Shown: positions 254 through 32,352 of the stretch, one piece after another
Layout of the letters: the number at the start of each line of letters is the position of its first letter
Numbering within the stretch: position 1 is the first letter of the stretch
Assembly: GCF_036971445.1 (NCBI RefSeq)
Contig: NC_091478.1
Coordinates: 28,954,001 to 29,018,000 of the forward strand
Length of the DNA stretch: 64,000 bases
Direction: 5' to 3'
Source: Narcine bancroftii
Lineage: Eukaryota
The notes under the pieces: generated by a model
Databases searched by the model: none
What the model saw: only the letters and a program-made list of their open reading frames with translations
Told to the model about the DNA's origin: nothing
Made by a program: the position numbers and the translations under genes

Positions 254-383
254 GTGCAAAGGGACTGGAGTCGCCGGTGTTGAGGGTGAAGGACTGGTGT
301 AACAGGCCTGGGGCAGGGCGATACCTCCCCACATCGTAGCCCATGGCCGGACAGCCTTCAGGTGGACATGTGAAACATTGCTC
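254..383 (-). CDS. Pancreatic lipase-family gene, coding exon 9 (EQCFTCPPEGCPAMGYDVGRY...LNTGDSSPFAR); gene continues beyond the left edge, so the PLAT-domain exons are not in the window
   Basis: ttccag acceptor and gtgagt donor; 130 nt; CFxCPxxGCPxMG and LNTG motifs of the PNLIP family; phase matches the preceding exon. Confidence 0.92.
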
Positions 384-1023
384 CTGGAACAGACACAGTC
401 ACAACCGCACCACCGTCTCCTATAATTTTCTCATGCATAGAATGATTCCACCAGCCAATAAGAGGCTGGGACAAGAGTGACACAGCAGAAGTCACTCCTG
501 AGTTATGTATGCTGCCAATAATTTAGCATTGCTCCACCAGCTTGCCTCTCAGCCTCCAAGGTTTCAGCATCACCCATCTCTCGCCATAAATACAGCAAGA
601 AATTATGGTGTTGACCCTGGTGTGGACCCAGGGGAGCCATGAACGGAGACCAACAGGGCTTTGCAAGGTCTTACTGCCTGGTTGTGGTGCTGACAGCTCT
701 TTGCAACGTTTAAATGGCCTGTTAAAGGAGCTACACTGTCTTTTATAACCACAGAGTCTGAGCCCAGGGTGGTGTTACCTGTGTGTGGCAGCAGCTATGA
801 TGTGTTGCAGACTCCAGGGAGGAGCTGCCTGTGTGTACCAGCAGCCAAGAGGAGCTGCAGACTCCAGGGGAAGAGCAGAGCAGCGCAGAAATGGGGAGAA
901 CACCTGTCATTAAGAAGAATTCTGGGAGAAGACCCTACAGGGAAGGTGTCCATAGCTGAAAACCAGCGAGGGGCCTAGTGGCTGAAGGATTCACACAGGC
1001 TGTGGGCTGCTGGTGACATGACC

Positions 1024-2440
1024 ATAAGACATCAGCAGAAATAGGCTATTTAGCCCATCAAGTCTGCCCCACCATTTAATCATGAGCTGATCCATTTTCC
1101 CACTCAGACCCTCTGCCCAGGCTTCTCCCCACAACTTTTGATGCCCTGCTAATCAAAAAACCTATCAATCTCTGCCTTAAATATGCCCAATGACCGGGCC
1201 TCCACAATCACCTGTGGCAGCAAATTCCACAGATTCACCACCCTCTGGATGAAGAAATTCCTCCACATCTCTGTTCTAAGTGGACACCCTTCAATCTTAA
1301 ATTTATGTCCTCTTGTCCTAGACTCTCCCACCATGGGGAACAACCTTTCTACTCTGCCAATACCTTTTAACATTAAAAATGTTTCAATGAAATGCCCCTC
1401 ATTCTTTTAAATTCCAAGAGTTGTCAAACACTCCTCATATGATAGACCTTTCATTCCTGGAATCATCCTTTTGAATCTTCTCTGAACTCCCTCCAATGTC
1501 AGCACATCCTTTCTTAAATGTGGAGCCCAAAACTGGTCTCAATACTCCAAGTGGGGTCTCACCAGTCCCTTATAAAGCCTCAACATCACATCCCTGCTCT
1601 AATATTCAATTCCTCTTGAAATGAATGCCAGCATTTGCCTTCTTCACCACTGACTCAACCTGGAAGTTTACCTTCAGGCGATCCTGCATGAGAACTCCTA
1701 GGTCCCTTTGCATCTGGGTATTTTCAATTTTCTCCCCATTTAGAAAATAGTCTGCCTGTTTATTTTGTATACATGACTGTACACTTTCCGACATTATATT
1801 TCATTTGACAATTCTCTGCCATTTTAATCTGTCAGTCCTCCATGTTTCTTCCACACTACCTGTTTCTCTATCTACCTTCGTATCTGCAAATTTGGCCACA
1901 AAGCTATTCATTCCAGCCCCTGTGGAACACCACTAGCACAGGCAGCAAACTAGAATATGATCCTTATATTCCAACTCTCTGCTTCCTGCCAATCACCCAA
2001 TGGTCTACTCATGCTAATATGTTTTCTGGTGTAGCACAGGCTTTTACCTTGTTAAGGAGTCTCATTTACGGCACCTTGTCAAAGGCCTTCTGAAAATCCA
2101 AATGCACAATATCTACTGCATCTCCTTTATCCAGCCTGCTGGTCACTTCCTCAAAGAATTCTAATAGGTTTGCCAAGCAAGATTTTCCCTTTAGGAAACC
2201 TTGTTGGCTTTGACCAATCCTGTCATGTGTCTCCAAGTATTCTGCCACCTCATCCTTTACCATCGACTCCAACATCTTCTCAACCACTGATGTCAGGCTA
2301 ACCAGTCTATAATTTCCTTTCTGCTGCCTCCCTCCCTCCTTGAATACTGGGGTCACACTTGTGCTAATCCAGTACTATTAATTCATGAAAGATCAGTACC
2401 TATACCTCCACAAGTCTCTACTGCTATTTCTTTAAGAACC
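1024..2440 (-). mobile_element. CR1-type LINE 3' fragment (degenerate RT to 3' tail)
   Basis: ORF fragments GNYRLVSLTSVV...LDFQKAFDKVP and ESRTRGHKFKI...FFIQRVVNLWN. Confidence 0.85.
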
Positions 2441-2649
2441 CGAGGGGGCAATCCATCTGGTCCAGGAGGCTTGGGGTTGAGGGACCCTGCACAAGCTGCA
2501 GGCTGCTGGAGACTGGCTCATGGGATCCAGGTACTGGAGCCAGGATTTGAGAGGTTGCTGAGGGTAAAAAGGGCTCCTGAAGGGCACTGAAAGCTTCCTG
2601 ATCGTGACGGAGGTTTTGATCTGGAGCTTGGGTTGCCAATGGATTGGAC

Positions 2650-2850
2650 ATACAGCATGGTCACCTTCCCAATTACACCCAATTACCCTACAAACCCTGT
2701 ATGTTTTGAACAGTGGGAGGAAACCGGAGCCCCCGAGGAAAACCCACACAGACACAGGGAAAATGCACAAACTCCTTACAGACAGCACGTGATTCAAACC
2801 CTGGTCCCAATTGCTGGCTCTGAAACAGCATTAAACTAACCGCTGCATTA
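2650..2850 (-). mobile_element. V-SINE/HE1-like SINE. Other copies at about 11880-12080, 21090-21315, 24745-24960 (+), 27690-27850, 39740-39930, 58995-59190
   Basis: Recurrent core gagtttgt..gttctccctgtgtctgcgtgggttttcc..gggtgctccggtttcctcccac seen in many places in the window. Confidence 0.75.
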
Positions 2851-3650
2851 ATTATGTGCCCCATTTTTATGTATTATTATGTGACAATAAAAGGAACTTT
2901 GAAAATCTCCATTTCAGGTGAATCTCCTGAATCTCCAGCACAAACACATTCTATGTTTTGTAAAGTTCTAACGCAACTTCCCAACATTTATATTTCATGT
3001 CCCAACATGAAGCCAAGGGTAAAATAGTCACCACCCTATGCACCTGGGTTACTACCTTCAGGGAACTCATAATTTGAACCCTTAGATTGCTATGTTACCA
3101 GCATGCCTGTGTCCCCTGCCATTTACTGGATTTGTTCTGCCCCTGTTTACTTTCCTCACCCTTGTTGGGATTAAATTCCATGGGCCAGTGCTCTGCCCAA
3201 TTTCCCATCTGGTCCATCTCCTGCTGCACCTTGGACAATCTTCCTCACTCTCCACAACTCCAATATATCACGCAACCTGCAGAAGTAATAGTCATACCTC
3301 CAACCTTCACCTCCAAGGTGTTTACCCCTGGATTCTCAACGTATCCCTGCTTACATAACGGACAGCTCTGTAAACCTGGACCAGAGTTGGACATACACCT
3401 CTCAAATGTATCGCTCTACAGCCAGTATCCCCTGCCTGCGAGTGAATATCTCAGACACCTCCTTGAGTCTCAGCTGAAGAATGATGTTGGTGAAGGAAAG
3501 TGAGGAGAGAGGACAGACTTGGTGTGAGCAGAAATCGGAGGGACGTATTGAAGAACCAGACAGCTCACTGGCACCACCCTGTGGCATCGTGGAAGATCGC
3601 TGCCTGAAACATGCAGAATGTATATTTATTGTACGTACAGTACAGTATAT

Positions 3651-4646
3651 TTTTGCAGACGATGCCGCTTTAGTTGCCCATTCAGAGCCAGCTCTTCAGC
3701 GCTTGACGTCCTGCTTTGCGGAAACTGCCAAAATGTTTGGCCTGGAAGTCAGCCTGAAGAAAACTGAGGTCCTCCATCAGCCAGCTCCCCACCATGATTA
3801 CCAGCCCCCCAACATCTCCATCGGGCACACAAAACTCAAAACGGTCAACCAGTTTACCTATCTCGGCTGCACCACTTCATCAGATGCAAGGATCGACAAT
3901 GAGATAGACAACAGACTCGCCAAGGCAAATAGCGCCTTTGGAAGACTACACAAAAGAGTCTGGAAAAACAACCAACTGAAAAACCTCACAAAGATTAGCG
4001 TATACAGAGCCGTTGTCATACCCACACTCCTGTTCGGCTCCGAATCATGGGTCCTCTACCGGCACCACCTACGGCTCCTAGAACGCTTCCACCAGCGTTG
4101 TCTCCGCTCCATCCTCAACATCCATTGGAGCGCTTACATCCCTAACGTCGAAGTACTCGAGATGGCAGAGGTCGACAGCATCGAGTCCACGCTGCTGAAG
4201 ATCCAGCTGCGCTGGATGGGTCACGTCTCCAGAATGGAGGACCATCGCCTTCCCAAGATCGTGTTATATGGCGAGCTCTCCACTGGCCACCGTGACAGAG
4301 GTGCACCAAAGAAAAGGTACAAGGACTGCCTAAAGAAATCTCTTGGTGCCTGCCACATTGACCACCGCCAGTGGGCTGATAACGCCTCAAACCGTGCATC
4401 TTGGCGCCTCACAGTTTGGCGGGCAGCAACCTCCTTTGAAGAAGACCGCAGAGCCCACCTCACTGACAAAAGGCAAAGGAGGAAAAACCCAACACCCAAC
4501 CCCAACCAACCAATTTTCCCCTGCAACCGCTGCAATCGTGTCTGCCTGTCCCGCATCGGACTTGTCAGCCACAAACGAGCCTGCAGCTGACGTGGACTTT
4601 TTTACCCCCTCCATAAATCTTCGTCCGCGAAGCCAAGCCAAAGAAG
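3651..4646 (+). mobile_element. RTE-clade LINE, 5'-truncated young copy with 12-bp TSD
   Basis: Open ORF FADDAAL...CNRCNRVCLSRIGLVSHKRACS; TSD AGTACAGTATAT at 3639-3650 and 4647-4658; short AAG-rich tail. Confidence 0.95.
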
Positions 4647-4713
4647 AGTACAGTATATATTTTAAGTTAAACAAGGAGGGGAAGCTTTAAATTCTTTAAA
4701 ATTGCTTAACCTT

Positions 4714-4715
<2 letters not shown>

Positions 4716-4797
<82 letters not shown>

Positions 4798-4969
4798 CAT
4801 ATGTGCACATAAGTGTGTATGTGCATGTGAGTGAATGTGTGCACGTGTGTAAGTGTGTGTATGCACATGTGTGTGTGTGTATTGTGCTCATGCGTGAGTT
4901 GTTTGTGTGTGCTTGTGCACAAGGGTGTGCATATGTGCACAACTGCATGTGTGTGTATGCGTGCAAATG

Positions 4970-5013
<44 letters not shown>

Positions 5014-5017
5014 TGTA
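4716..5017. repeat. (GT)n microsatellite with degenerate GT/GC/AT-rich extension
   Basis: Pure GT run about 4716-4792, followed by interrupted GT repeats. Confidence 0.97.
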
Positions 5018-5636
5018 CTAGAGAGAGGGTGCTGTCAGCTGTGCCCTTTGATTAACCCATGCAGTCACTGCCCTCAAAGTCTTTGATTACCACATAAAGT
5101 GCCTTCACACCCACCCTCTTTGTCATTTAATACACACCACACCCAAATTCTAATAATTCTAAAGGTTAATCCTGAATCCAAACTGTTGGCCACAAGTATA
5201 ATGGTAAGCAGTGATTAGCCATGGGCTGTCAACATGGCTACTGACATGGATCCATGTATGAGTGGAAGAATTTCCCTTTGGAAACATTTGTCTGCTCCAC
5301 TGCCAAGCCTCTTCGAGGGATGCCCACCCTGAAGATGTTCTCCTCTCTTTGAAGGCAGTTCTATGAGAGTTACTCTCACTCATCGCCCTCTGTTAAACCC
5401 ACAGCTCCCAAGCTGCAGGACAGTGTGATCTCCCAGACTCTCCCCTCCTACTGATATGCACCTATACCCTGTCAGCCTGTTCTCCTCCTCTTCCCTCCAC
5501 CGTTCCTTTTTATGTCTGGCTGGTTTTCGACACCTCGATGAAAAGCCAGGCCTGAAACAAGGGTTGTGCTTCATTTGCTTCTTGACCTGCTGAGTTTCTC
5601 TAGCACTGTTGAATGCTGCCTTTCTTCTGTACTTAC

Positions 5637-5755
5637 TGCCTGAAATTCCTCCTCACTGGCACAACGAAAGGCCACAAAACCATCCGGTGACCCAATGCTC
5701 TCCGTGAAATACTTAATGGCACGCAAATGGTTGCAGGACAGAAAATTCTTTGTGC
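5637..5755 (-). CDS. Pancreatic lipase-family gene, coding exon 8 (TKNFLSCNHLRAIKYFTESIGSPDGFVAFRCASEEEFQA), carrying the catalytic His
   Basis: catag acceptor and gtaagt donor; 119 nt; CNHLR motif. Confidence 0.93.
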
Positions 5756-5857
5756 CTATGGGAAGAAAGAACAATTCTGATTCATAAGCATTAGACCATA
5801 AGACATAGGAGCAGAAATAGGCCATTAAGCCCATCAAGTCTTCTCCAACATTCAATC

Positions 5858-8800
5858 AGATTTCAGATTTATGATCAGAGAGCATAAATGACATCACATA
5901 CAACCCTGAGATTCTTTTTTTTTGCGGGCAAGGAAGAATTTCCACCTATTGGTAAACAGATAACAGATAAACTGTAAACAGATAACAAATGTAGACAAAT
6001 TGACTGTGAAATAAGAGAGAACAAAACAAATCGATAAAGTGCACAAGTAAAAGTCCTTAAATGAGTCCTTGATAGAGGTCGTTGTTTTTTTGTTTTGTTT
6101 TTTTTAAATTTTTTATTTTTCACACCATAAATCACATTAACCATGATACACACTTTTTCCTTTTCACACATATACAGTGCCATTTTTTCCCCCACCCCCC
6201 TCCCTCCTCCCATCCCACCCTCCCTACCTCCCCCCTCCCGTCCATTTAAGGTACAAAATCTAGGATAAATTAAACCAGTCAGACAATGTTGTCATTCAAT
6301 AAAAATACACCAGAAATTCCACTGAGTCCATTCTTTTCATTTCCTTTTCCTTCCGTTAACTTAGGTAGTGACTGTCCCCGGTAGGTTTTCGCTATTGTGT
6401 TTCATGTAAGGCTCCCATATTTGTTCGAATATTTCAATATTATTTCTTAAACTATATGTTATAACCGAGGATAGCACTAGATAAATTAACAGAATGGTAT
6501 AAACAAGGAGGCTTACAACTGCCAAATTTTAAAAATTATTATAGAGCTGCACAATTAAGATACCTATCAGATTTTTATCGAACAAGGGAAAAACCAGATT
6601 GGACGAGATTAGAATTAGATAAAATAGGGGAAAAGATACCTGAACACATATTATATAAATGGGATGAAAAATTGGTACAACATAGAACTTCTCCAGTATT
6701 ACATCATCTCCTCAATATTTGGAAGAAGATTCATGTAGAAAGAAATAAAACAAATTATCAATTACCAAAACTAATATTGACGCAAAACAAGTTACTCCCT
6801 TTTACAATAGATAACCTTTCCTTTAGAGAATGGGAAAAAAAGGGATTAAAAGAATAGAAAATTGTTTTTCAGGAAATAGATTCTTATCCTTTGAACAAAT
6901 GAAAGATAAGTACAATATAACTCAAGATACAGCGCTGGCATATTACCAATTGAGATCCTACTTGAAGGATAAATTAGGAAGCAGCTTGAGTTTGCCAGAG
7001 GGAAGTAACCTTGAATATGTGATTACAGATACAATGTTAATCAAAAGATTTATAACAAATATGTATATTAAACTGCAAGAAAAGGAGAATGAGGAAACAA
7101 ATGGTAAAACTAAACAAAAATGGGAACAAGATTTAAATATAAAGATAAAAAAGGAAACATGGGAGAAGTTATGCTCTGGAACGATGAGAAATACAATAAA
7201 TACGAGGTTACGTATGATACAATATAACTGGATACACAGGCTATACATTACACCTCAAAAGTTAAATAAATAGGACCCAACAGTATCTGATAGATGTTTT
7301 CGATGTAAAAAAGAAATGGGAACAACAATTCATGCAATCTGGACATGTGAGAAAGTAGAAATATTTTGGGAAGATCTCAATCAGATATTAAATAAAATAA
7401 CAGAAAACAATATACCAAAGAATCCAGAGATCTTCCTCCTAAGTAACATAAAAAACAAAGAATTTGGAATTGATTTGGAGGATGCACAAAAAAGATTTGT
7501 TAAGATAGCTCTAGCCGTAGCAAAAAAATGTATTATGTCAACCTGGAAATTGGAAGATAATTTGAAAATACAACAATGGTATATAGAAATGAATAAATGT
7601 ATTCCATTGGAAAAAATAACATATAGTTTAAGAAATAATATTGAAATATTTGAACAAATTTGGGAGCCTTACATTAAATACAATAGCGAAAACCTACCGA
7701 TGACAGTCATTACCCAAGTTAACGGAAGGAAAAGGAAATGAAAAGAATGGACTCAGTAGAATTTCTGGTGTATTTTTATTGAATGACAACATTGTCTGAC
7801 TGGTTTAATGTATCCTAGAATGTATACCTTAAATGGACGGGAGGGGGGAGGTAGGGAGGGTGGGATGGGAGGAGGGAGGGTGGGAGAAAATGGCACTGTA
7901 TATGTGTGAAAAGTAAAAAGTGTGTACCATGGTTAATGTGATTTATGGTGTGAAAAATAAAAATTTTTTAAAAATAAATAAATAAATGAATGGTGATTCC
8001 TTCTTAAATTTTGAGAAATCCGCATTATTCATAGGCATTGCTTCACTTTTATTTACGTTGATCTTGTAACCCGACACTTCTCCATATTCCTTCAATTTCT
8101 TATATAATTCTTTTATTGATAGTTCTGGTTCTGTTAAGTATACTATAACATCATCCGCAAATAAACTGATTTTATATTCCTTGTCTTTTATTTTTATCCC
8201 TTTTATATTATTTTCTGTTCTTATCAATTCTGCTAGTGGTTCTATAGCTAACGCAAACAATAAAGGTGATAGTGGGCATCCCTGCCGTGTTGACCTGCTT
8301 AAGTTAAATTGCTTTGATACATGTCCATTTACTGTCACTTTCGCTAATGGTCCCTTATATAATGCTTTAATCCAATTAATATACTTCTCCAGTAAACTGA
8401 ATTTTTGCAATACTTTGAACAAATAATTCCATTCTACTCTGTCAAAGGCCTTCTCTGCGTCTAAAGCAACTGCTACTGTTGGTGCTTTATTCCCTTCTAC
8501 TGCATGAATTAAGTTAATAAATTTACAAATATTGTCTGTTGTGCATCTTTTTTTGATAAATCCAGTTTGGTCTAGATTTACCATTTTCGGATTGAGGTCG
8601 TTATTGAGGAGTCTAATGGTGGAGGGATATTAGCTGTTCCTGAATCTGCTGGTGTGAGTCTTGTGGCACCTACACCTCTCCTGATGGCAGCAGTGAGAAC
8701 AGAGCATGTGCTCAGTGGTTTAGACCTTTGATGATCGCAGTGTTCCCTGTAGATGTTCTTGATGGTGGGGAGGGTTTTGCCTGTGATGTCCTGAGCTGTA

Positions 8801-9630
8801 TCCACTGCCTTTAGGAGGGCTTTACACTCAGGGGTATCGGTGTCCCCATACGAGACTCTGATGCAACCAATAAGCACACATTCCACTACACATCTGTAAA
8901 GATTTGCCAGGATTTCTGATGTCATACCAAACATCTGCAAACTCCTGAGGAGTAGAGGCATTGATGTGCTTTCTTCATGATGCCATTAGTGTGTTTGGTC
9001 CAGGAAAGATTCTCTGAGATAGTGAAGAACTTAAATTTTGCTCACCCTCTTCACCTCTGGTCCCCCAAAGATCACTGGACTTTGATCTCTGGCTTTCCTT
9101 TCCTGAAGTCATTGCCTAGTTTTGGTGACATTGAGTGCAGGGTTGTTGTTGGTGCACGTTTTCAATCTCCATCCTGTACGCTGACTCATCCCCTTCCTTT
9201 ATACAACCCACTATCGTGGTATCATCGGCAGATTTGTAGATGGTGTAATTGTTGTATTGAGCTACACAGTTGTAGGCGTAAAGTGAGTAAAGCAGGGGGC
9301 TAGGAACACAGCCCTGTGGTGCTCCAGTACTGATGGAGATTGTAGAGGAGATGTTCTTAGCAATCTTCACTGATTGTGGTCTGGAGTTGAGGAAATCCAG
9401 AATCCAATTACATAGTGGGGTGTTGAGTCCCAGGTCTTGGAGTTTGCTGATCAATTTTGAGGGGATGATGGTGTTAATGTAATAAAAAGCATCCTGATGT
9501 ATGCATCTTTACTGCCCAAGTGTTCAAGAGCTTTGTGTAGAGCCAGTGAGATGGCATCCACCATAAACCTGTGAAACGCATCCACGTCACTGCTCAGTCA
9601 GGAGCTGAAATGCTTCATCACCAGCCTCTC
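5858..9630 (-). mobile_element. Rex-Babar-type LINE fragment (5858-6084 plus 8590-9630) interrupted by an L1 composite
   Basis: [16 protein letters not shown]...[17 protein letters not shown]; (AATCTG)-like tail at about 5858; the host sequence resumes across the L1 insertion. Confidence 0.8.
6085..8588. mobile_element. L1-type LINE composite: minus-strand 3' end (6085-6462), plus-strand ORF2 C-terminus with 3'UTR and A-rich tail (6463-7987), minus-strand RT fragment (7988-8585)
   Basis: RT motifs LDAEKAFDRV, RQGCPLSPLLF, LFADDV; C-terminal CFRC..HAIWTC knuckle; approximate TSD gatagaggtcgttgtt / gattgaggtcgttatt. Confidence 0.88.
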
Positions 9631-9716
9631 AAAACACTTCAAGGAAAGGCTGTGCAACAGTGCTGGGTCCCACCGCAGCGTGTGTCTGAGTTACACCAAC
9701 ACCTTCTGTCACTAAC

Positions 9717-9836
9717 CTTCCCAGATCCCGTCCACATCCAGGATGGTTGAAATGAGGTTCTTTGAGCAGCCTGGCATGTTCTCTCCGCCATTTGGGTAGA
9801 AGTCCACATGGCCACAAGGATAGGTTATTCCAAACC
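9717..9836 (-). CDS. Pancreatic lipase-family gene, coding exon 7 ([40 protein letters not shown]), lid region
   Basis: catag acceptor and gttagt donor; 120 nt; [14 protein letters not shown] signature. Confidence 0.94.
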
Positions 9837-10594
9837 CTATGACAGAGACAGACCATCAGATTGGCCCCCACTCTCCCAGATACCCCACCGAGAGAGGGTT
9901 TTGGACTCTTAGTCTCTGCATATTCTCCTTCTCTCTCTTTCTGTCTCTCCCCCTCTCTTTCTCTCCACCGCACATCTCTCCACTTTCTCTCCCTCACTGT
10001 CCCCACATTCTCTCCCCACTCTCTCCATCACACTCTCAACTGCCCTCTCATGATGACGGGCCATGGGAACCAGGTGTGGGGACTGCGATCTGTGAGGGTG
10101 CCAATAGCCTGAAGGGCCTCAGTTGTCAGTAACTTCCTGATAGTTTCAGAGGTTCAGAACCAGGAGTTCAGGGTCACCACTAGACTGAACAGGAAGCCCT
10201 GCGGCTGCAGAGGTTGCAGGCATGCAGGAGGTGAATCCACAGCCACTTGGTGACTCTGAAGGGACTCTCCTTCAACTCTTATTGGTGGGGGAACCAGGCA
10301 AGTGGCACCTCTTCATGTGCCTCCATGGCAGGGGTGTACTACCTCCCAGTACATGAATCGTGTCTCTCTCTCTCTTGTTCTTTCACCATTTCACTTTATG
10401 ACATGTCTTGCTCTTCTTTTCCCTCTCTCACAATTCACCCCCCCCCCACCCCCACCCTGGCTCACTGTCTTGCCTCATTATTTCCTAGACCACTTCGACC
10501 TAGGGACAGGTCCTTTGGCCCAACTCTTCCATCCTGACCAATTTGGCATTCTTATAAACCCTGGTCAATTTTATGCATTCCACCAAAAATAATA

Positions 10595-11565
10595 CCATAA
10601 GACATAGGAGGAGAAATAGGCCTTTCATCTCATTGAGTCCTCCCTACCATTTAATCATGAGCTGATCCATTTCCCCACTCAGCCCCACTGCCTAGACTTC
10701 TCCCCATAACCTTTGACGCCCTGGCTAATCAAGAACCTATCAATTGCCCCTTTTCCACTGGCATCCCGGCTAATAGGCCATGCAGTGTCCTGGGATAGGA
10801 AGCCACTTGTGCTGTTTCCACTGGGCCATCCTTAACTGGGACAGTGACTACTTTTCCACTGAACACAATTCATACCTGAGATCAGAATGTTCTACCTTCA
10901 ACTGGAAATGGTGATTTTCTGCTGTCCTTTTTCCATTGGTTTAATCAGCATATGAGTAGGGGTAGAGGCTGTAAATCCCGCCTTGAAATGACGTCATTTG
11001 ATGCCAGTGTGCTGAATGTTTTCTTTTTCCATTGGACCCTGTCCCAGTTAATTCCCTGTTAATTCCTGGGACAATGTGCCAGTGGAAAAGGGGCTATTCT
11101 CTGCCTTTAAAGCACCCAATATCCTGGCCTCCTCAACCACCTGTGGAAACAAATTCCACATATTTACCACCCTCTGGCTGACGAAATTCCTCCAATCTCT
11201 GTTCTAAGCAGACACCCTTCAATCCTGAAGTTGTGCCCTCTTGTTCTAGACTCTCCCACTGTGGGAAACAACCTTTCTACATCCTCTCTGTCCACAACTT
11301 TCAACATTCAAAATGTTTCAATGAGATTCCCCGTCTTTCTCTTATATTCCAACGAGTACAAGCCAAAAGGTGTCAAACATTCCTCTATGATAGCCCTTTC
11401 ATTCCCAGAATCATCCCTATGAACCTCTCTGAACCCTCTCCAACATCAGCACATCCTTTCTTAAATGAGGAGCCTAAAACTGCTCACAATACTCCAAGTG
11501 AGGTCTCACCAGTGACTTATAAAGCCTCAACATCACATCCCTGCTTTTACATTCTATTCCTTTTG
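10595..11565 (-). mobile_element. CR1-type LINE 3' fragment with a nested MITE
   Basis: Same sequence family as 1024-1620; continuity across the insert at 10745-11095. Confidence 0.8.
10746..11094. mobile_element. Non-autonomous DNA transposon (MITE), PIF/Harbinger-like
   Basis: Perfect 18-bp TIR GCCCCTTTTCCACTGGCA / TGCCAGTGGAAAAGGGGC; about 3-bp AT-rich TSD (aat/att) inside the CR1 host. Confidence 0.8.
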
Positions 11566-11689
11566 AAACAAGTGCCAGAGGTGCCTGTTTCGATCCTGTG
11601 ATTCACCTCCTTCCCAGTGAGGACCTGTGCCAGTGCTCCCCACCTTTCTGCTGTCCCCAGATGCGGGAAATATCCCCAATGATACCGAC

Positions 11690-11809
11690 CTTTGTCAGGG
11701 GACTGCAAGGAGCCATCCGTGTGAATCACATCAACGAAATGGGCGTCGGTGGGGTCCAGGCGCACTTCAGGAGGAGTGTTCTGGAAATACGGGGCAACAG
11801 GATCAAGGC
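11690..11809 (-). CDS. Pancreatic lipase-family gene, coding exon 6 (GLDPVAPYFQNTPPEVRLDPTDAHFVDVIHTDGSLQSPDKG), carrying the catalytic Asp
   Basis: ctgcag acceptor and gtcggt donor; 120 nt; GLDP and RLDPxDAxFVDVIHTD motifs. Confidence 0.94.
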
Positions 11810-12548
11810 CTGCAGAAACAAAATCATGGATCAGTCTAGAGTCTCTCACATCTCTGCTGTGCCTAATTTATTTAGTTATTTATAATAGAGTAGAAGCTGA
11901 TTCTGGCCATTTAAACCCATGGCACCCAATTACATTCAATTGACCTACAACTCGGCATATTTTTTTGTACAGTGAGTGGAAACCGGAGCACCTGAAGGAA
12001 GCCCACGCAGACACAGGGAGAACATACAAACTCCTGACAGATAGCGCTGAATTCAAGCCCAGGTCACTGGCGCTGTAATGCATGGGATGCATGCAATCTG
12101 CTGCAATGCACAGAATCTCAATCCCTAAATCTCCACATTCAGAAAGGGGACCATTCAACCTATGAGCAATGCCATTCCCCTTCCTCACCCAATTTTCCTG
12201 TAAACTATTCCCCCCACCCCACATTCCCATCAACTCCCCCACCTTACCCACACAAGGGGGACAATCTATTAATTTAGTGGCCTTCAGGATGTGGGAGGAA
12301 TCTGGAGCACCCACATGATCATAGAGAGATTACGCCAACTCCACAGTGACAGCACAGGAAACTCTGGTGTCTGGAGCTGAGTAAGAGCCTCTAACTGCTG
12401 TCCATAAAGATGCCATAAAGCCTTTCTCCATTCACTGTACGTCCCATCCTTATTCCAGTACAGAGTCACTTCCAGCTACGAACTCTTCTCCCTGTCTCCC
12501 ACATAAACACCAGCCATTCCAAATCCAGGCTGTGACCGAGAGAATTAC

Positions 12549-12657
12549 CTGTAATGCGAGCAATGCCTGGCTTCCGCCGACCTGCTTCCCCAGCAGAGTG
12601 AGCACCCAGTCCATGCCCCACCAGGTAGATGTCAGGCAAGGTATAGTTGTAGTTACT
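12549..12657 (-). CDS. Pancreatic lipase-family gene, coding exon 5 ([37 protein letters not shown]); nucleophile Ser replaced by Gly
   Basis: gtccag acceptor and gtaatt donor; 109 nt; GHxLGAH..GEAGRR..RITG motif with a GGA codon at 12612-12610. Confidence 0.93.
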
Positions 12658-14091
12658 CTGGACCACACAGAGAAGAGAAGGGAGGTGAGCAGGCAAAGTC
12701 AGACACAGCTTCCGAATCTCTTCACAGACTTGTTGCTTCAGGTGGTAGAGTAATACAGCAAATCTCTGTTTCTGTCTGGGAGTGTCACAGAGTCAGGGTG
12801 AAGGGTTGATAGGGAATGGACTGACTTCGTGGGATAATACGGTATGACGTAGGAGTAGAACACCACCATTTAACCCATCGATCTGCTGACCCACTCAAAT
12901 CATAGCTGATGCATTATTCCTCTCTACACATTCTCCTGCACCCTCCCCATAATTTTTCACATCTTCATTAATCAATAATCTTTTAACCTCCGCTTTAAAT
13001 GTTTACAAAATTATGACGGGGATAGACAGAGTAAATATAGATAGGCTTTTTCCACTGAGTTTGGGTGAGATACATACCAGAGGACATGGGTTAAGAGTGA
13101 AAGGGAAAAAGTTTAGGGGGAACATTAGGGGAATTTCTGCACACAGAGAGTGGTGGGAGTATGGAATGAGCTGCCAGCTGAAGTGGTGAATGTGGAGTCA
13201 ATTTTAACATTTAAGAAGAATTTGGACAGGTACATGGATGGGAAGGGTATGGAGGGCTAGGTACTGAGTCCCGGTCAGTGGGACAAGGCAGAATAGTTTG
13301 GCACAGACTAGAAGGGTTGAAGGGCCTGTTTTCTGTGCTGTAATGTTCTGTGGTTCTATAGTTCTACCCAGTGACATCCTCCACAGACGTCAGTGACAAC
13401 TTCCCCAATGTGGCTCAGATAAAGAGCACTGTTTATCCTGTTCACCCCTGGCTGCAATGTCAGTGAGACACTGAGAGACACAGGGGACCACAAGTGGTGG
13501 CAATCTGGAGCAGGGTCTCAACCCACAACATCATCCATCCCTTTGCCTCCACTGTTACTGCCTGATCCCTGAATTCCTCGTGCAAATTGTTAATTGTTCC
13601 AGGGAGGTCACTCCTGTTCTGTTACAGGCCAACTTGTTTTACAGGCAAATTGCTTGTGTTGTTTCTACAACCTACACCCAATTCCACAAGCAGATGCTAC
13701 CTGAAGTGTTACAGTCCACATTCTGTCCATGTTCGATTGCAATCAACACCCTGTTTTATGAGAAAAATATTCCTGTTGGGTTAAGGTTCATATTCTGCTT
13801 TACAAACAGACTGTGCTTGTTGTGCTACAGCCCACACCTGTTCCATGTGGAGATTTTTCCTGTGATGTTACAATCCATGTCTGTTCCACTGACCTGCACC
13901 CAGTTCAGAGACCTCCATATCCCTCCCATCCTTGTACCTGTCCAAATTTTTCTTAAATGTTAAAATTGAGCCCACATTCACCACTTCATCTGGCAGCTCG
14001 TTCCATACTCCTGTTCCTGTTCTGTTACAGTCTACACCCTGCTTTCTGGGGCATTTATTATAAAAGATGATCGGTATTTACTGTCACTTAC

Positions 14092-14226
14092 CTGCAGAGC
14101 GTCAAGGAAGTATACGATCTCAGCTCCCACGACACGGAGGTTCTGAGAAGCCTGGCTGAACGGGCACTGTGAGCCCCCTCTCCACTCCACACAGATACAG
14201 TTGACATCGTCTGCTTGTAGAATTGT
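14092..14226 (-). CDS. Pancreatic lipase-family gene, coding exon 4 (TILQADDVNCICVEWRGGSQCPFSQASQNLRVVGAEIVYFLDALQ)
   Basis: 135 nt; VNCICVxW.GGS and QASQNxRVVGAE motifs; gtaagt donor; the acceptor is an unusual tttgag. Confidence 0.9.
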
Positions 14227-14279
14227 CTCAAAGAAAAATATACAGAGCCTGAATTCAGTTGGAACCTGACCAGTCAGCA

Positions 14280-14810
14280 GAAGTAAAGCATGAAAGCCTG
14301 CAGACATCATGGTTGAAGTAAAACCTTTGCTCTGACTGCGCCAGGGACAGGGACCTCCCAGTGGCCAACCATTTCAGTTTTGCATCACATTCCCACACTT
14401 GCATGTGTGACCATGGCCTCATGTATATCCCACCAAGACCACCCGCAAATTGGAGGAACAACTCCTGATTTTCCCTCTGGGCACTCTCCAGCCAGATGGC
14501 ATTAACATCGACTTTTCTGGTTTCTGCTAACCTGCTCTCCTCTTCCCCCTCCATTCCCTTCCCCATCCACTCTCCTCTTCCTTCCATCTCCCTTCACCCA
14601 GCCATCCATCCTCCCCTTGATCGCTGCCGTGTCCTCCCTCCCTTCTCCACCTATTACCTCCTGCCTTTGCCACCCTTACCCTTTTATTCAGATGCCTGCC
14701 AACATTTTTCCATACTTTGATGAAGGGCTCAAGCCTGAAATGTCGTTTATGTATTTTTATCTTTGCTGTATAGAGACTGCTTGACCTTCTGAGTTTCTCC
14801 AGCATTGTGT
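14280..14810 (+). mobile_element. Penelope-like element fragment with terminal repeat
   Basis: Degenerate C-terminal GIY-YIG region (LPVANHF..., KLEEQ.LIF.LG.LQP.G.NIDF) followed by the ttgatgaagggctcaagcctgaaa terminal module. Confidence 0.65.
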
Positions 14811-15582
14811 GCCATAGAGTTCAACTGATCTAACGGGACCAAATGGGCTATTTGGCCCTCCTTTCCAATACTGACAATCTCATTCCAAACCCTTCCCCAT
14901 AAATCCTCATTCCAACTTCTCTGTGGAGTGCCAATGTTGGTGGACAAACTCACAGAGGTTTATCTGATGACATGCCATGCCCCTGATACCAGGATTTTTC
15001 ATGTTTTCAAAATAACTTCGTATTTAAAAGAAAACAATCCAATTCCTTATTGGTAATACTCTAGCCCTGGTGACTGTCCTCTCCCCGTCCTTCCTATGCT
15101 GTACACAACATTCCAAATGTACCCTAACCAAGTCCCCAGCAGTGGAAGACAAATGTACCGTACGCCTTCTTTCCCCCCATCCACTTGTTTCCACTTTCAG
15201 CATCTGTGGATGCACCCCAAGATTTCTCTGAATATCAGTGCTCCAAAGGGCCCTTTCACTCACTTTTGTCTTGCATTTGACCTGCCAAAATGCAACACCT
15301 CAACCTTATCCAGATTAAACTTCACCTGCTATTCTCTGCCCAAATTTCCCATTGATCTCTATTCTGATGTGTCCTTTGACAACCTTCCTCACTGGCAACA
15401 ATTCTGCCATTTTCATGTCATCTGCAAAGTGCAAACTTACTCATCAGCCCATCTACATTTTCAACAAAATAATTCACATTAATCACAAGCAACTGTGGAA
15501 AACAAACAAAAAAGCATTTTCTGCATTCACAGAGCCATTTCTCTCGCTTGCCGGTGTGCCCTCCCTCCCTTATACACCTGTT

Positions 15583-15681
15583 ACCTCCTGCCTGTGGGAC
15601 CATGCTCCTCCTCTTTACCTCCTGCCTGTGGGACCATGCTCCTCCTCTTTACCTCCTGCCTGTGGGACCATGCTCCTCCTC
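15583..15681. repeat. 34-bp tandem repeat, about 3 copies
   Basis: Unit acctcctgcctgtgggaccatgctcctcctcttt. Confidence 0.9.
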
Positions 15682-16516
15682 TGCCCCCCACCATTTTGTT
15701 CAGGTCCCTGTCGACATTTTTTTCATACCTTGATGACGGGCTCGAGCCGGAAACGTTGGTTATGTATCTTTATCTTTGCCACACAAAGTTCACTGTTTGA
15801 CTTCAACCATTACCCTCTGAATTCTATGACCAAGCCAATTTTGGATCCTCTTATCCACTCACTATAGATCTCGTGTCTGAATCTTCTGGATTAGCCGACC
15901 AGGAGGGACCACTCAGACAACTTCTACTGCCCTATCCTCATCAATCATCTCCATCACCTGCTCAAAAACCTCAATCAAATTTGTAAGACATGACGTCCCC
16001 TGCTAATTGTCCTTAATGTCTGTGCTTTTCTACCAAATGGGAGGTAGGGGAAGGAGAAAGGTCCCACAGGGAGGAGGTAATAGGTGGATAAGGGAGGGAG
16101 GGCACAGCAGCATATGGGGGGAGAAGAGTGTGAATGCAGAAAATTATTTTTTGATGTTTGTGTTCATTAATCCTGCCTCTAAAAATCATCAATTATTTCC
16201 CCATGACTGGTGCAATGGTGGGATGGCCCAGAAACCCTTCCTTTCACTTTGCAGCCCTTCATCCTTCCCATCACCCATACCCCCCTCCGCAGGATCGCCG
16301 CATCCTGCTCCAGACACACCACAGGGCAGTTGGAGCACCAAATATCCGTCATATCACATCTCATGTTCTCACCATCCACTGTTCAACAATTCACACCTTG
16401 CACAGATGCATAGTTAACACCTTGCACCAAACTGCAGTTCACACCCTGCACCGATCCATAGATCACATTTCTCTTTAATCTACAGCTCACCCCTTGCACA
16501 GATACACAGTTCAAAC

Positions 16517-16642
16517 CTTGCACAGATCAATGGTCCATGTGGAATCTCCGTGTTCCAGGTACCCATGAATCACCAGGACAGATCTGCGATCAGTGTTGAA
16601 GTTGGAGGCAGCAACAGTCTGTGGGCTGATCCCACTGATTTC
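16517..16642 (-). CDS. Pancreatic lipase-family gene, coding exon 3 (EISGISPQTVAASNFNTDRRSVLVIHGYLEHGDSTWTIDLCK)
   Basis: ttctgcag acceptor and gtttga donor; 126 nt; SNF...IHG(F/Y)...W....CK pattern. Confidence 0.92.
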
Positions 16643-17325
16643 CTGCAGAAATAGCCCAAATCAATCGTCTGCTGTTGCCGACCTGGAGTGTGCAGGCGAG
16701 CTATGGGAAGGAGAAGCCACTGCCCGGATAACTGCAGGTGAGGCGCAACTCCTGCTGAACGCTGAGCTTTGGGTAACAGAACCCCCAAGTCTGGGTGAGA
16801 AAAGCCCAGGTTCAAACCTCAGCTGACACAGTGGGTGGTTTAGCGGCAGAACTCTAACAGAAAGAGGGTTTGTGATGATACTGGCTCTATGGGAAGCTCA
16901 GCATTTCCTCTCATCTCCCGTGTTCAGGCACTCCTAGATTACAGGGGAATCTCTGAGAGATAGTGTCTCTGACAGGCACTGAGGGATCTGCCGGGTGCTG
17001 GTGTGCTGCCTTCAATACCACATTTATTTATTCATTTGCAGGATTCAGGCCAGCATTTATTGCCCATCCTGAACTGCCCTTGATCTCCTTGAACCACTGC
17101 AGTCCTAGTGAAGGGGCTCCCATGGTGCTGGTGGGTGGGAGATCCAGGGTATGGCCTGGTGGTGGTGCAGGTTCTTGCGAAGGGGCTCCCATGGTGCTGG
17201 TGGGTGCACAGTGCAGGTTTTAGACCTAGTGACGGTGCAGAATCATGAGTGTTTATTATGCCTGTTGTAGCTCTAAACACAGCTGAGTTTCCTGGGGAGA
17301 CTGGCCTGGGAGAAGGTTGTGTTAC

Positions 17326-17486
17326 CTGGAAATTGTTGGGGTTCAGCCTGGTGTACAGGAAGAAATGGGTGTCAATCTTTTCAGGGCTCCATGGAGCTCT
17401 GTTGACAGGTCTCTCCTTTATCCCATTCCATGGGTATCCAAGCGGGAAGCAGCCCAGTCTGTCAAAGCAGATCGATTCTCCTTCAC
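17326..17486 (-). CDS. Pancreatic lipase-family gene, coding exon 2 (GEGESICFDRLGCFPLGYPWNGIKERPVNRAPWSPEKIDTHFFLYTRLNPNNFQ)
   Basis: CFDRLGCF, PW.G..ERP, PWSP and FFLYT..NPNNFQ motifs; tag acceptor and gtaaca donor; 161 nt. Confidence 0.92.
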
Positions 17487-17489
17487 CTA

Positions 17490-17734
17490 TCAGATTCAGA
17501 TTTACTGTCAGAGTACATACATGACATCACATACAACCCTGAGATTCTTTTTCCTGTGGGTGAGGCAGAATTACAATTTGTTGGCAGTATGTAAAAAAAA
17601 ACTGTATACAATGTATAGATGTAAACAAACTGACTGTGCAATACAGAGAAAAAAAATCTATAAAGTGCCAAAGTAAGAGTCCTTAAATAAGTCCCTGATT
17701 GAGTTTGTTGTTGAGGAGTCTGATGGTGGAGGGG
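17490..17734 (-). mobile_element. Short Rex-Babar 3'-end fragment inserted at the lipase splice acceptor
   Basis: Matches the 3' ends at 5858-6084 and 20130-20390; tcagattcagattt tail abuts the acceptor. Confidence 0.8.
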
Positions 17735-18871
17735 TAAGATCCAATGGGGAAAAGGGGGTGTGTTATGCAAAATCACACTGCAAATGGTGCTCTTGGAATG
17801 CATCTCTTTTGTCATGTGGGGGCACACAGGATTTGAGAAGGTGTCAATGGCGAGCAGGGCCAGTGGCAGGTTAACCATTAGACCCCTAGGGGCCTGGAAG
17901 GTCAGGGAGCCCATCACAACCACTGGTACACCAATGTATCCACTTGCCAGTATGGATACATTGACACAGGCAGGTCCACCTATCAATTAAAGCTTGCAGA
18001 AGTACCGCATTCACCTGTCAATCAGCAGTGGGGTCTCAGTCCCATGTATCAATTTGGGCTCTGCCAGTCCCAATGCTACCTGTCAACCAATGCTTGCATT
18101 TGTACATCCGCGCAAGTCTGACGTCTACTTCCTGCAGCAGAGCTCGGCTCATGCAGCGTCACTCACAGGAGATTTACTTTTTTTTAAAAAGATTCTCCCT
18201 TCTCCTGTGTTATTTTGTATTGAGACTGACATTTTAGAACTGATTTAATTTACCCTTTTGTAACTAACAGACTTTTCAAATTATTCAACGTTAAGCAGTC
18301 GACTTCTGTAAGGTGTTGTTTAATTTCATGAAGTTTTTCCTCCCCTCCAATCAAACACCAACTGGTGTATTCCCAGAACATACCCGGCAGATAAATTTAG
18401 AATATGTGAGGGCAACATGCCCAAATGCTAATAAATGGAACAATTTCACTTTATTCTATTCAATGAAGGGTGGGGGCCATGGGGGAGGAGGGACAAGGTC
18501 AGGGGGAGGGCCTTACTAAAGCTCAGCCTAATGCCAGGGTGGTAGTTAATCCACCACTGAGCAGGGCTCTCAAAGGATCTCAGGCGCTGACAGCTCCCTC
18601 ATCACATTGGGGATTGGGAACCAGGAGCTGAGGAGGGAGGCTTGGACACCTGGAGCTCAGGGTCACCGCTGGTCCAGACAGTAGGCCACATGGCTACAGA
18701 GATCACGGGGGCGCAGGAGGCAGTAGCATTGGAGGGGGTAGCGGGATCCACAGAAACTCGGTGTCTCTGAGGTGGCTCTCTTCTGCTTCTCTTTCTCATC
18801 TTGACAGAGCAAAAAAGAATCTCAGGGTTGTGTGTGATGTCATGTATGTTCAGATTTATTGCCAGAGTACA

Positions 18872-19408
18872 TTAGAACATAAGGAATAGAAGCAGGAGTT
18901 GGCCATCGAACCATCAATGTGATCTGGCTGATTTGGCAATAGGCTCATCTCCATCTTCCTGCCTTTTCTCCTTATCCCTTAATTCCCTCATTATGTAAAA
19001 ATCTATCCAATTTTGCCTTAAATATATTTACTGAGGTTGCCTCCACTGCTTCAATGGACAGTGAATTCCACAGATTCACCACTCTCTGAGAAAAGCAGTT
19101 CCTTCTCACCACTGTCCTAAATCTACTACTTTGAATATTGAACTGTCCCCTACTTCTGGTCTCCCCATCAATGGAAACAACTTACCTACCTTTATCTTAT
19201 CTAGACCTTTCATAATTTTAAACATTTCTATAACACATTCATTCTTCTAAACTCCAGCTAGTACAGTCCCAGACGACTCATAGGCTAACCCCTTCATCCC
19301 TGGAATCAACCTGGCGAACCTCCGCTGCACCGCCTCCGAAGCCAGTACATCCTTCCTCTCGTTAGGAGACCAGAACTGCACACAGTACTCCAGATGTGGC
19401 CTCACCAT
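18872..19408 (-). mobile_element. CR1-type LINE 3' fragment nested in a Rex-Babar 3' end
   Basis: Typical tail (agaacataag...) and gaattccacagattcaccactctctg core; the host resumes at about 19409. Confidence 0.7.
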
Positions 19409-19642
19409 TACATACATAACATCACATACAACCCTGAGATTCTTTTTCCTGCAAGCGAGGCAGAATTTCTACTTAACAGTAGTGCAAAAAAAATGTACTC
19501 AAGAAAAAATACGTATACAAAAAAGATAAATGCAAACGAGAAGGCAGTGCAAACAAACTTTTTAATACAGAATCTTGAGTCTGTATCTTCATTTTAAACA
19601 CAAAAGGAAGGAATATTTAAGAAAAATTTCCTGGTCCCTTAC

Positions 19643-19691
19643 CATTGATTCTGGTAAGAATCAAAGTGACAAGAATCCACAGACTCAGCAT
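19643..19691 (-). CDS. Pancreatic lipase-family gene, coding exon 1: signal peptide MLSLWILVTLILTRIN(G)
   Basis: ctctttcag|ATG acceptor and gtaagg donor; 49 nt, phase 1, joins the next exon in frame; hydrophobic signal peptide. Confidence 0.85.
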
Positions 19692-28554: not shown

Positions 28555-29531
28555 CTAAAGGAAAGTCAACAGTCTGTCCGGGTCGGTAGCAGAACATCGA
28601 GCCCCGTCACACTGAACACTGGTGCACCTCAGGGCTTTGTGCTCAGCCCACTCCTGTTCATGCTACTGACCCATGACTGCATCACCAGATCCAGCTGGTG
28701 TCATCAAGTTGTAGATGACACAACAATAATGGTCTCATCAGCAATAATGATGAGTCGTAGTACAGAGAAAAGGTGGAAAATCTCATGGTGTGAGTGTTAA
28801 CATGGACAGCTTGAAGGAGATGATCGTGGACTTCAGGAATGACCACCCTCCACTACACATCAACAACTCTGTAGTAGAAAGTGTGAAGTGTACCAACTTC
28901 CTTGGAGTTCACTTAACTAGTGACCGATCATGGACACACAACATCTCCACCCTTGTCAGGAAGGTACAACAGCAACTGTACTTCCTGAGAAAACTGAAGA
29001 GGGCAAGGCTACTGACCAACATTATGTCAATCTTCTACAGGAGATCTATCAAGAACATCCTTGACAGCTGTATCAAGGTATGGTACGGTGGCTGCAGAGA
29101 AATGGATCGGAGGTCAATCCACAGGACCATAAGAGTGGCAGAGAGGATCAATGGAGTCTCCCTCCCCCCCACCCCCCCATCTATGTCATCTACCCAGATT
29201 GTTGACTGAAAATGGCATGCAAATCATTCTGCATAAACATCTTTCAGCTGCTCTCGTCAGGGATGAAATCCAGGAGGATCAGAGCCAGCACCACCAAGCT
29301 GAGGAACAGCTTTTTCCCACGGACAGTGAGAATGCTGAACAACCAAAGGAACTGCTCACACTAACCGTAGGAGACTCTCATATTCGTAAATAAATATTTA
29401 TTTGCATATATGAATATTTGTCCTGCATATGTATTGTTTGTCTGTTATGTCTGGTTGTGTGTCTGTGTGATTTACACCGAGAACATACTTTTGAACTTGG
29501 ATAATTAAATGACAGTGAACTTGAACTTGAC
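28555..29531 (+). mobile_element. Rex-Babar-type LINE fragment ending just upstream of TAF5
   Basis: TGAPQG..LSPLLF remnant, KEMIVDFR..FLGVHL ORF; gaacttgaacttga tail. Confidence 0.8.
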
Positions 29532-29670
29532 AATGCCTCCGAGGTGGCCATGCCCTAACTGTCGCAAAGATAGGCGGGGCATTCTGCCAGCACTGTCGTA
29601 GAGTGAGCGCTGGCTTTATAAGTGCAAGCAGGTGCCGTAAAGAGCGGCAAATGGTGGTGAAGATGGCGGC
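29532..29670 (+). promoter_or_regulatory. TAF5 proximal promoter / CpG island start
   Basis: GGCGGGGC GC box at about 29573; AAGATGGCGGC YY1-type motif overlapping the ATG; CpG-rich exon 1 follows. Confidence 0.55.
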
Positions 29671-30471
29671 GGTGCCGGAGGCGGCGAGCGACGGGACAAC
29701 CCCGATCCCCNNNNNNNNNNNNNNNNNNNNNNNNNNNNNNNNNNNNNNNNNNNNNNNNNNNNNNNNNNNNNNNNNNNNNNNNNNNNNNNNNNNNNNNNNN
29801 NNNNNNNNNNNNNNNNNNNNNNNNNNNNNNNNNNNNNNNNNNNNNNNNNNNNNNNNNNNNNNNNNNNNNNNNNNNNNNNNNNNNNNNNNNNNNNNNNNNN
29901 NGGCCCAGGCCCCCAGCCCGGCCCCGGTCCCGGTCCCCAGCCCGGCCCCAGTCCCCGCCGCCACCGCGTCCCCTGCTCCCTCGCCGTCCCCCAGCCCGTC
30001 GTCGGCGGTGAAGGCGGAGGAAAGCCCGGGGGAAGGCGGTAGGCCTGGCGGGGGCCCTGGGGCTGGAGCCGGGGCCGCTGCCGGGCCGGGGCCCGAGCTG
30101 AACGAGCGCCAGACGCTGCTCGCCGTGCTGCAGTTCCTGAAGAAGAACCGGTTCCGCGAGGCCGAGGAGACGCTGCGCCGGGAGGCCAGCGTGCAGGAGG
30201 CGCTGGACGAGGCGCTGCTACGGACGGCCGGGCCCCGTGGACCCGACTCGGTGCACCAGCCCGATGTCAGCTCGGTGCTGTCGGCCTACAGCAACCAAGG
30301 CGATCCCAGCCTGTACGAGGAGTACTACAGCGGCCTGAAAGCCTTCATCGAGGCGGCGCTGGACGCTCTGAAGGCCGAGCTGGCCAGCCTGCTGTATCCG
30401 GTGTTTGTGCACCTGTACCTGGAGCTGGTGTATAACGAACACGAACGGGAGGCCCGGCACTTCTTTAACAG
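29663..30471 (+). CDS. TAF5: TAF5 exon 1 (Pro/Ala-rich N-terminus, LisH-like RQTLLAVLQFL, start of NTD2); spans an assembly gap
   Basis: aagATGG start (an in-frame ATG also lies at 29651); QPDVSSVLSAY..QGDP..YEEYYSGLK..YPVFVHLYLELVYN; AG|gtcagc donor. Confidence 0.9.
29711..29901. other. Assembly gap inside TAF5 exon 1
   Basis: Run of N. Confidence 1.
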
Positions 30472-30594
30472 GTCAGCAGCGGTGCACAGCACAATACAGT
30501 GTGGATGCAATACAGTGTAAACCCTTTTAACAACAGCCTGACAATACCACAGGTCATTGGCGGTCCACAGCCCAATACAGTGCGAACACACTTG

Positions 30595-31635: not shown

Positions 31636-32047
31636 ATATCAGTGTATAAATCTCTATCAAGGAGGCTGGAACAATAGGAGTATTTCAAGACACTTGAGTA
31701 TGTAGATGAACAAAAAATAGAGGGTAATGAGGGAGAGAAGGTTTGGTTTTTTTGGTAGGTATACTGTATATAGGTCAGCAGAACATCATAGACCAAAGGG
31801 GCTGTATTATGCTGTTGTGTTTGATGTTCACTGTAAATAGCACAGTTAATAACAGGGTCTTAAACCACCTGTTCTATCCTAACCTGAACTGTAAAATGGT
31901 CAGGGGCTACCAAAAATCTGTCTGCATTATTAAAACATCCACTTTTGCACAAGCAGAAACTGTGAATATTTATCTTGTTTTATTTATTTACATGGCATCC
32001 AGTGGTAATTTAATGTGTTCTGTTTGTGGTTGGTGTACCTTGCCTAC

Positions 32048-32279
32048 CGGTGTGGCTGCAGCAATCTCGGTGTGGCTGCAGCAATCTCGGTGTGGCTGCA
32101 GCAATCTCGGTTTGGCTGCAGCAATCTCGGTGTGGCTGCAGCAATCTCGGTGTGGCTGCAGCAATCTCGGTGTGGCTGCAGCAATCTCGGTGTGGCTGCA
32201 GCAATCTCGGTGTGGCTGCAGCAATCTCGGTGTGGCTGCAGCAATCTCGGTGTGGCTGCAGCAATCTCGGTGTGGCTGT
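32048..32279. repeat. 20-bp minisatellite, about 11.5 copies
   Basis: Unit ggtgtggctgcagcaatctc. Confidence 0.97.
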
Positions 32280-32352
32280 ACATGTGTACTAGTGTATATG
32301 ACACTAAGCTTTCATCTCGGGCTTTAGCAGCACTTTACCTGGTTTATTGCAG

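Follow-up and report, generated by a model that had tools for sequence, protein, structure and literature searches.

The window analyzed here, a 64,000-nt stretch of the 3.33-Gb genome of Narcine bancroftii (C22:28954001-29018000), carries on its minus strand a gene of the pancreatic lipase family, further called paralog B, in which the catalytic serine of the nucleophile elbow is replaced by glycine. To judge from its sequence and from its orthologs, paralog B is intact and selectively retained, and its product is predicted, with near certainty, to be devoid of lipase activity. Residue positions are given in pancreatic lipase numbering unless a residue of the protein itself is named.

Gene structure and nucleophile elbow

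Complete paralog B consists of 12 GT-AG coding exons (1419 nt in total) that encode 472 residues and end in a stop codon, without internal stops or frameshifts; nine of them lie in the window, and exons 10-12 lie past its edge (Table 1). A first-pass annotation of the window had proposed nine exons joined in one open frame, and all of them were recovered with the proposed sizes and AG/GT boundaries (1069 nt in total), together with the catalytic Asp and His and the full-length lid (C-x23-C) of the family, with 23 residues between Cys255 and Cys279 of the protein and the disulfide cysteines conserved. Stop codons and frameshifts were looked for in the downstream PLAT exons, and none were found; exons 10-12 complete the domain. 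Exons 2-9, the eight exons scanned, match the Pfam Lipase family (PF00151) in order. In the pancreatic lipase gene family the lipase alpha/beta-hydrolase domain precedes a PLAT domain; paralog B shows this arrangement and, by its sequence, is a member of the family outside active PNLIP and PNLIPRP1. Database model P0001 (XP_069755490, Narcine bancroftii, 470 aa) describes the same gene with the exon 2 acceptor 6 nt further down; the longer exon 2 is backed by the motif GEGE in the Pristis ortholog.

The elbow lacking serine, reported in the same annotation, was read as VGHGLGAH with a GGA codon; in the alignment of exon 5 with solved pancreatic lipases, GHGLG stands against GHSLG, and the Ser of the GxSxG motif of active lipases is missing. 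As had been argued, GGA is two steps away from serine, which excludes a slip in base calling, yet in evolution one step is enough to turn AGY into GGY. A contig from a run that may be the source of the assembly is identical over the GGA codon and is not independent, while contigs of a second species (two runs of one sample) span the Gly codon without difference, and a further run ends before it. The identical substitution, S152G, has been engineered in human PNLIP, where it serves as an inactive mutant and control (PMC12208342), whereas in paralog B it is natural and has become fixed in four orders of batoids. As this substitution is the standard way to abolish the activity of human PNLIP, inactivity of paralog B is strongly predicted.

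Two small contigs, G000:C435 and C502 (L053, L054), match the 3' part of the locus at 99.5% identity and probably represent the other haplotype. The first 10 kb of each stop short of exon 5; they contain exons 8-9 or 8-12, and a single mismatch falls in exon 9.

Distribution of Gly and Ser forms

Sequence searches and cluster look-ups yielded one orthologous group, paralog B (69-80% identity), in which the site could be read in 20 species. The question whether GHGLG is shared by other sharks and rays could thus be answered: Gly is common to nine of these species, all represented by separate assemblies, namely all eight batoids, belonging to four orders (Narcine, Pristis, Amblyraja, Leucoraja, Hypanus, Hemitrygon, and two species of Mobula), and one of the 12 sharks, Heptranchias. 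The other 11 sharks retain Ser, which was also found at the nucleophile position in 55/55 rows outside paralog B. In databases, some Gly forms are named "inactive pancreatic lipase-related protein 1-like" and others "pancreatic triacylglycerol lipase-like". A second gene with Ser, paralog A, about 52% identical to paralog B, is present in all 20 species; in N. bancroftii it (P0142, with GHSLG and LDPAK) is located on the plus strand at C22:16.596-16.613 Mb (L014-L016), 12.3 Mb from paralog B.

Left out were the S. canicula model of paralog B, in which the site is absent, a fragment, three additional models (isoforms or duplicates), and two short, unrelated members of the cluster. No paralog B of Callorhinchus or Rhinoraja was seen among the best 120 matches listed, which does not establish its absence. 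The Mobula and Hypanus models have odd C-termini, likely because of missed last exons, as Hemitrygon and M. hypostoma end normally. In paralog B of the basking shark Cetorhinus (P0135), the elbow reads GYSLG in place of GHSLG.

Signature residues and predicted structure

Paralog B shares with PNLIP and paralog A (the smooth-hound digestive lipase, SmDL, and P0142) the exon structure, Asp176 and His263, both invariant in 9/9 Gly forms, the lid and the disulfide cysteines. It differs from them, besides the lost nucleophile, by replacement of Asp79 (Glu/Lys) and Arg256 (Lys/Met) in all sequences, by Val or Ile at position 178 (20/20, against Ala in 22/22 sequences of paralog A), by Val/Ile in place of Tyr267, and by two extra cysteines, Cys131 and Cys239, invariant in 20/20 species; position 239 is not Cys in paralog A, nor is Cys among the common outgroup residues there. 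At position 213 of the beta9 loop, Lys occurs in 8/8 batoids, and a hydrophobic residue in all shark sequences of paralog B and in all of paralog A. A role in acyl-chain binding has been attributed to this loop (PMC8287333). Val178 with Lys213 would be expected to narrow and polarize the acyl groove.

Val178 was also found in 5/5 placental PNLIPRP1 rows and not in three marsupial and monotreme rows. Together with Ala180 it is said to be the cause of the inactivity of PNLIPRP1 (PLRP1), a conclusion reportedly reached by Crenon and by Roussel in 1998. The full PNLIPRP1 signature (intact triad, Val178, Ala180) differs from that of paralog B, in which Ser is missing in 9/20 species and Pro180 is kept in 19/20; Ala180 was seen only in the horn shark Heterodontus (P0013), where it is combined with Val178 into the complete pair attributed to PLRP1.

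A structure model built from 120 sequences replaced a poor first fold obtained from 21 sequences (predicted local distance difference test, pLDDT, 62.6). It has a pLDDT of 85.4 and a predicted template modeling (TM) score (pTM) of 0.85, with low confidence in the lid and the beta9 loop. The best structural match is human PLRP1 (2ppl, TM 0.89), with PLRP2 and horse lipase nearly equal. In addition to the fold, paralog B has in common with PNLIPRP1 the full lid, the PLAT domain, Val178, and retention beside an active paralog and colipase, its own inactivity being predicted, and it may work like PNLIPRP1. The two nevertheless differ, as PLRP1 has Ser152 and Ala180, whereas paralog B has Gly152 and Pro180; they are not orthologous, and the locus of paralog B, unlike that of PNLIPRP1, adjoins a TAF5-type gene, 12 Mb from the active paralog.

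Evolutionary history

In the gene tree, paralogs A and B are two fully supported groups, and Callorhinchus falls with paralog A. A clade uniting paralog B with mammalian PNLIPRP1 was rejected by the approximately unbiased test (p-AU 2.3e-5; 35 rows, LG+G4), which rules out their orthology; therefore the label "inactive pancreatic lipase-related protein 1-like" used in databases does not denote orthology. A duplication confined to cartilaginous fishes, with all their rows in one clade, was rejected as well (p-AU 6e-5). The sister of paralog B is a sturgeon and paddlefish lipase, P0023/P0249 (support 100/99), a placement to be taken with some caution, both stems being long and the tree unrooted. 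Because of this sister, the B lineage is likely older than the split of sharks and bony fishes. The sturgeon and paddlefish lipase has several B-type residues, but also Ser152, Ala178, and Pro180, and is possibly active. In P0023 and P0247-P0250 from these fishes Ser152 is kept and positions 256, 264, and 267 are changed; since a Logan contig of just 1.6 kb contains one full-length copy, a spliced transcript is suggested.

Heptranchias is not joined with rays in the gene tree, and a tree in which they were forced together was not rejected (p-AU 0.23; 0.093). On what we take to be the species tree, two origins of Gly, in the ray stem and in Heptranchias, take two steps, against three for a single origin followed by reversals. 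Gly152 would thus have arisen twice; this count depends on the assumed species tree, the gene tree by itself being indecisive.

Constraint on paralog B

Among species representing the four batoid orders, one per order, the protein difference is 19.8% of sites in paralog B and 15.1% in paralog A, a ratio of 1.31 (95% bootstrap interval 1.05-1.63); in four Ser-keeping galeomorph sharks the ratio is 1.11. Relaxation in batoids relative to these sharks is not significant (ratio of ratios 0.92-1.52). In the eight batoids, 260/422 columns are invariant in paralog B and 292/422 in paralog A. The batoid orders separated roughly 200 million years ago; the open frame and 77-80% identity of paralog B across orders of such age rule out neutral decay. 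None of the marks of a pseudogene (stops, frameshifts, lost splice sites, neutral divergence) were observed, and the earlier proposal that the gene is a conserved paralog without catalytic function, and not a pseudogene in decay, stood up, given the intact PLAT exons, Gly in nine species, and protein divergence near the level seen in the active paralog. The expected ratio of nonsynonymous to synonymous changes (dN/dS) below 1 was borne out in direction but weakly: exon 5, to which the codon comparison with the second species was confined, has four synonymous and two non-synonymous changes (pN/pS 0.2, p=0.058).

Colipase and the possible role of paralog B

The N. bancroftii genome contains a colipase gene of three exons at C11:241.39 Mb (G000:C11:241389.0-241391.5 kb; L050, L051). 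Its database isoform P0200 has Asp at the position of porcine colipase Arg65 and an N-terminus unlike the signal-peptide exon seen in the locus. Among the colipase-contact positions of lipase, taken from Table 2 of PMC7094207, positions 240, 243, 247, 368, and 399 are invariant in 20/20 sequences of paralog B. Position 403 (human Tyr404), which is Asn, Asp, or Ser in paralog B, was discarded as an argument, for Asn is also found there in alpaca PNLIP and in 7/8 PNLIPRP1 rows.

Mammalian PLRP1 binds colipase in competition and lowers lipase activity (PMC6386725), and in the stingray, bile salt inhibits pancreatic lipase and colipase restores its activity (PMC3098174). Two lipase-related transcripts of the catshark pancreas, reported along with colipase, were named Pnliprp1 and Pnliprp2 (PMC4362833); judging by these database names, they may correspond to paralogs B and A, respectively. 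Two text supplements on catshark contain no lipase entries. SmDL, which has been described as active, has a published sequence of type A. The authors of that description suspect that the smooth-hound pancreas also contains a second, classical lipase (PMC7094207), which could be the Ser-keeping shark paralog B.

These observations can be combined into a scheme in which Val178 would have been acquired in the shark-ray ancestor as the first crippling step, Gly152 would then have arisen twice, and Lys213 would have been added last, in rays. The protein, presumably secreted by the pancreas, would bind colipase in competition with active paralog A. That paralog B is such a convergent, PNLIPRP1-like colipase competitor and a brake on fat digestion is a tentative reading, somewhat short of an even chance; we favor it because PLRP1 lowers lipase activity, the stingray lipase depends on colipase, the contact positions are invariant, and the catshark transcripts come from pancreas.

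Several points weigh against a brake. Pancreatic expression of the ray protein, which competition for colipase presumes, is putative. Among the runs listed as containing exon 5 there was no RNA run, a result that carries no information on expression. The contact residues are kept equally in paralog A, and the smooth-hound enzyme of this type, which also has them, is nevertheless insensitive to activation by colipase (PMC7094207); therefore their retention does not demonstrate binding, and in smooth-hound there would be little for a colipase decoy to regulate. Moreover, position 365 is Ile in 3/20 sequences of paralog B, and its PLAT domain diverges 1.33 times faster than that of paralog A in batoids, with no sign of extra constraint. 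Only half of the signature ascribed to PLRP1 is present, invariant Cys131 and Cys239 are left unexplained by competition for colipase, and the dN/dS test is based on just six changes in one exon.

Instead of a competitor, the dead lipase could be a carrier of lipid or bile salt, similar to dipteran yolk proteins, and could act either in the gut or in a different secretion (uterine fluid, egg, mucus). We consider this unlikely, though it draws on the same sequence evidence for a conserved pseudoenzyme with lid and PLAT domain kept; higher Diptera do use non-catalytic neutral lipases as yolk proteins (PMC7240578), and the two extra invariant cysteines could serve a new partner or oligomer. However, a groove narrowed and polarized by Val178 and Lys213, as their expected effect would be, does not favor cargo, and the presumed shark ortholog was reported from pancreas. 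The first-pass annotation had pointed to non-enzymatic lipase-fold proteins such as dipteran yolk proteins; these and the non-catalytic neutral lipases of wasp venom and ovary combine a broken triad with non-enzymatic roles, but the lids of the non-catalytic insect proteins are mostly short (PMC7240578), whereas in paralog B the lid is 23 residues long and a PLAT domain is present, and mammalian PNLIPRP1 is a closer analogue than the yolk proteins. Less likely still is a positive cofactor that would bind bile-salt-covered droplets or shuttle colipase, aiding the active lipase or carboxyl ester lipase. It would agree with conservation of the interface-binding parts, and carnivorous rays might gain more by help than by a brake; yet no precedent was found in the literature searched, and PLRP1, the sole characterized inactive pancreatic lipase, inhibits (PMC6386725).

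Retained enzymatic activity on an unusual substrate, through another nucleophile or a water-activating Asp-His dyad, is very improbable. Invariance of Asp176 and His263 in the Gly forms would fit it, but structural roles also exist for these residues, and S152G is null in human PNLIP (PMC12208342). The sole nearby serine, Ser176 of the N. bancroftii protein (position 157), is no substitute nucleophile, because it is private to this species, being Ala or Thr in other Gly forms, and sits in the helix after the elbow. A sequencing error or decaying pseudogene is hardly credible at all: the somewhat faster divergence of batoid paralog B could be cited for decay, but Gly recurs in nine separately assembled species and in contigs of the second species, the 12-exon frame is open and well conserved across batoid orders, relaxation relative to Ser-keeping sharks is not significant, and the unusual ends of the Mobula and Hypanus models look like the result of missed last exons.

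Other features of the window

The TAF5-type gene adjoining paralog B in head-to-head orientation, which we assume to be TAF5 rather than TAF5L, may serve as a synteny marker for locating paralog B in other genomes. The window further contains remnants of mobile elements, among them a broken long terminal repeat (LTR) retrotransposon and fragments of long interspersed nuclear elements (LINE), and a long tandem repeat (Table 1).

Table 1. Exons of paralog B and other features of the window (window coordinates unless the contig is given).
Feature	Position	Strand	Remarks
Coding exon 1	19643..19691	-	N-terminus hydrophobic, signal-peptide-like (by eye and by position relative to homologs)
Coding exon 2	17326..17486	-	161 nt; start in database model at 17480
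Coding exon 3	16517..16642	-	beta5 loop; oxyanion-hole position 77 is Tyr96 (16561-16559)
Coding exon 4	14092..14226	-	carries Cys131
Coding exon 5	12549..12657	-	nucleophile elbow GHGLG
Nucleophile codon GGA	12610..12612	-	Gly171 of the protein, replacing catalytic Ser152
Coding exon 6	11690..11809	-	Asp176 (11804-11802), Val178 (11798-11796), beta9-loop Lys213 (11693-11691)
Coding exon 7	9717..9836	-	B-specific Cys239, lid start Cys255, colipase-contacting lid positions 240/243/247
Coding exon 8	5637..5755	-	lid end Cys279, catalytic His263 (5729-5727)
Coding exon 9	254..383	-	end of catalytic domain
Exons 10-12	G000:C22:28953391-28953280, 28952743-28952576, 28950783-28950714	-	PLAT domain; past window edge
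TAF5-type gene, first exons	29531-32746 onward	+	Pfam TFIID_NTD2; about 10 kb from lipase start codon
LTR-retrotransposon remnant	33461-36200	-	broken; aspartyl protease and integrase matches; after second TAF5-type exon seen
LINE reverse-transcriptase fragments	3478-4587 and 60996-62093	+	near-identical pair
LINE-like insertion	6465-8629		inside lipase intron 7
24-nt tandem repeat	38400-39680		long; open in several frames on both strands

Implications

No description of a pancreatic lipase lacking Ser in sharks or rays was found in full-text literature searches, by which subscription journals are mostly not covered. The label "pancreatic triacylglycerol lipase-like", given to several Gly forms, misleads work on digestion in these fishes. 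It has long been asked why mammals keep inactive PNLIPRP1, and the answer has come mainly from a single competition model, of which a second, independent vertebrate case offers a direct test. Living intermediates, from sturgeon (Ser, Ala178) through most sharks (Ser, Val178) and Heptranchias (Gly, Val178) to rays (Gly, Val178, Lys213), display a route from enzyme to pseudoenzyme, every step of which can be assayed. It is conceivable, though on balance doubtful, that jawed vertebrates evolved a dead pancreatic-lipase regulator at least twice, here from an ancient B lineage that would have acquired Val178, then Gly152 on two occasions, in rays and in sevengill sharks, and would act as a colipase brake.

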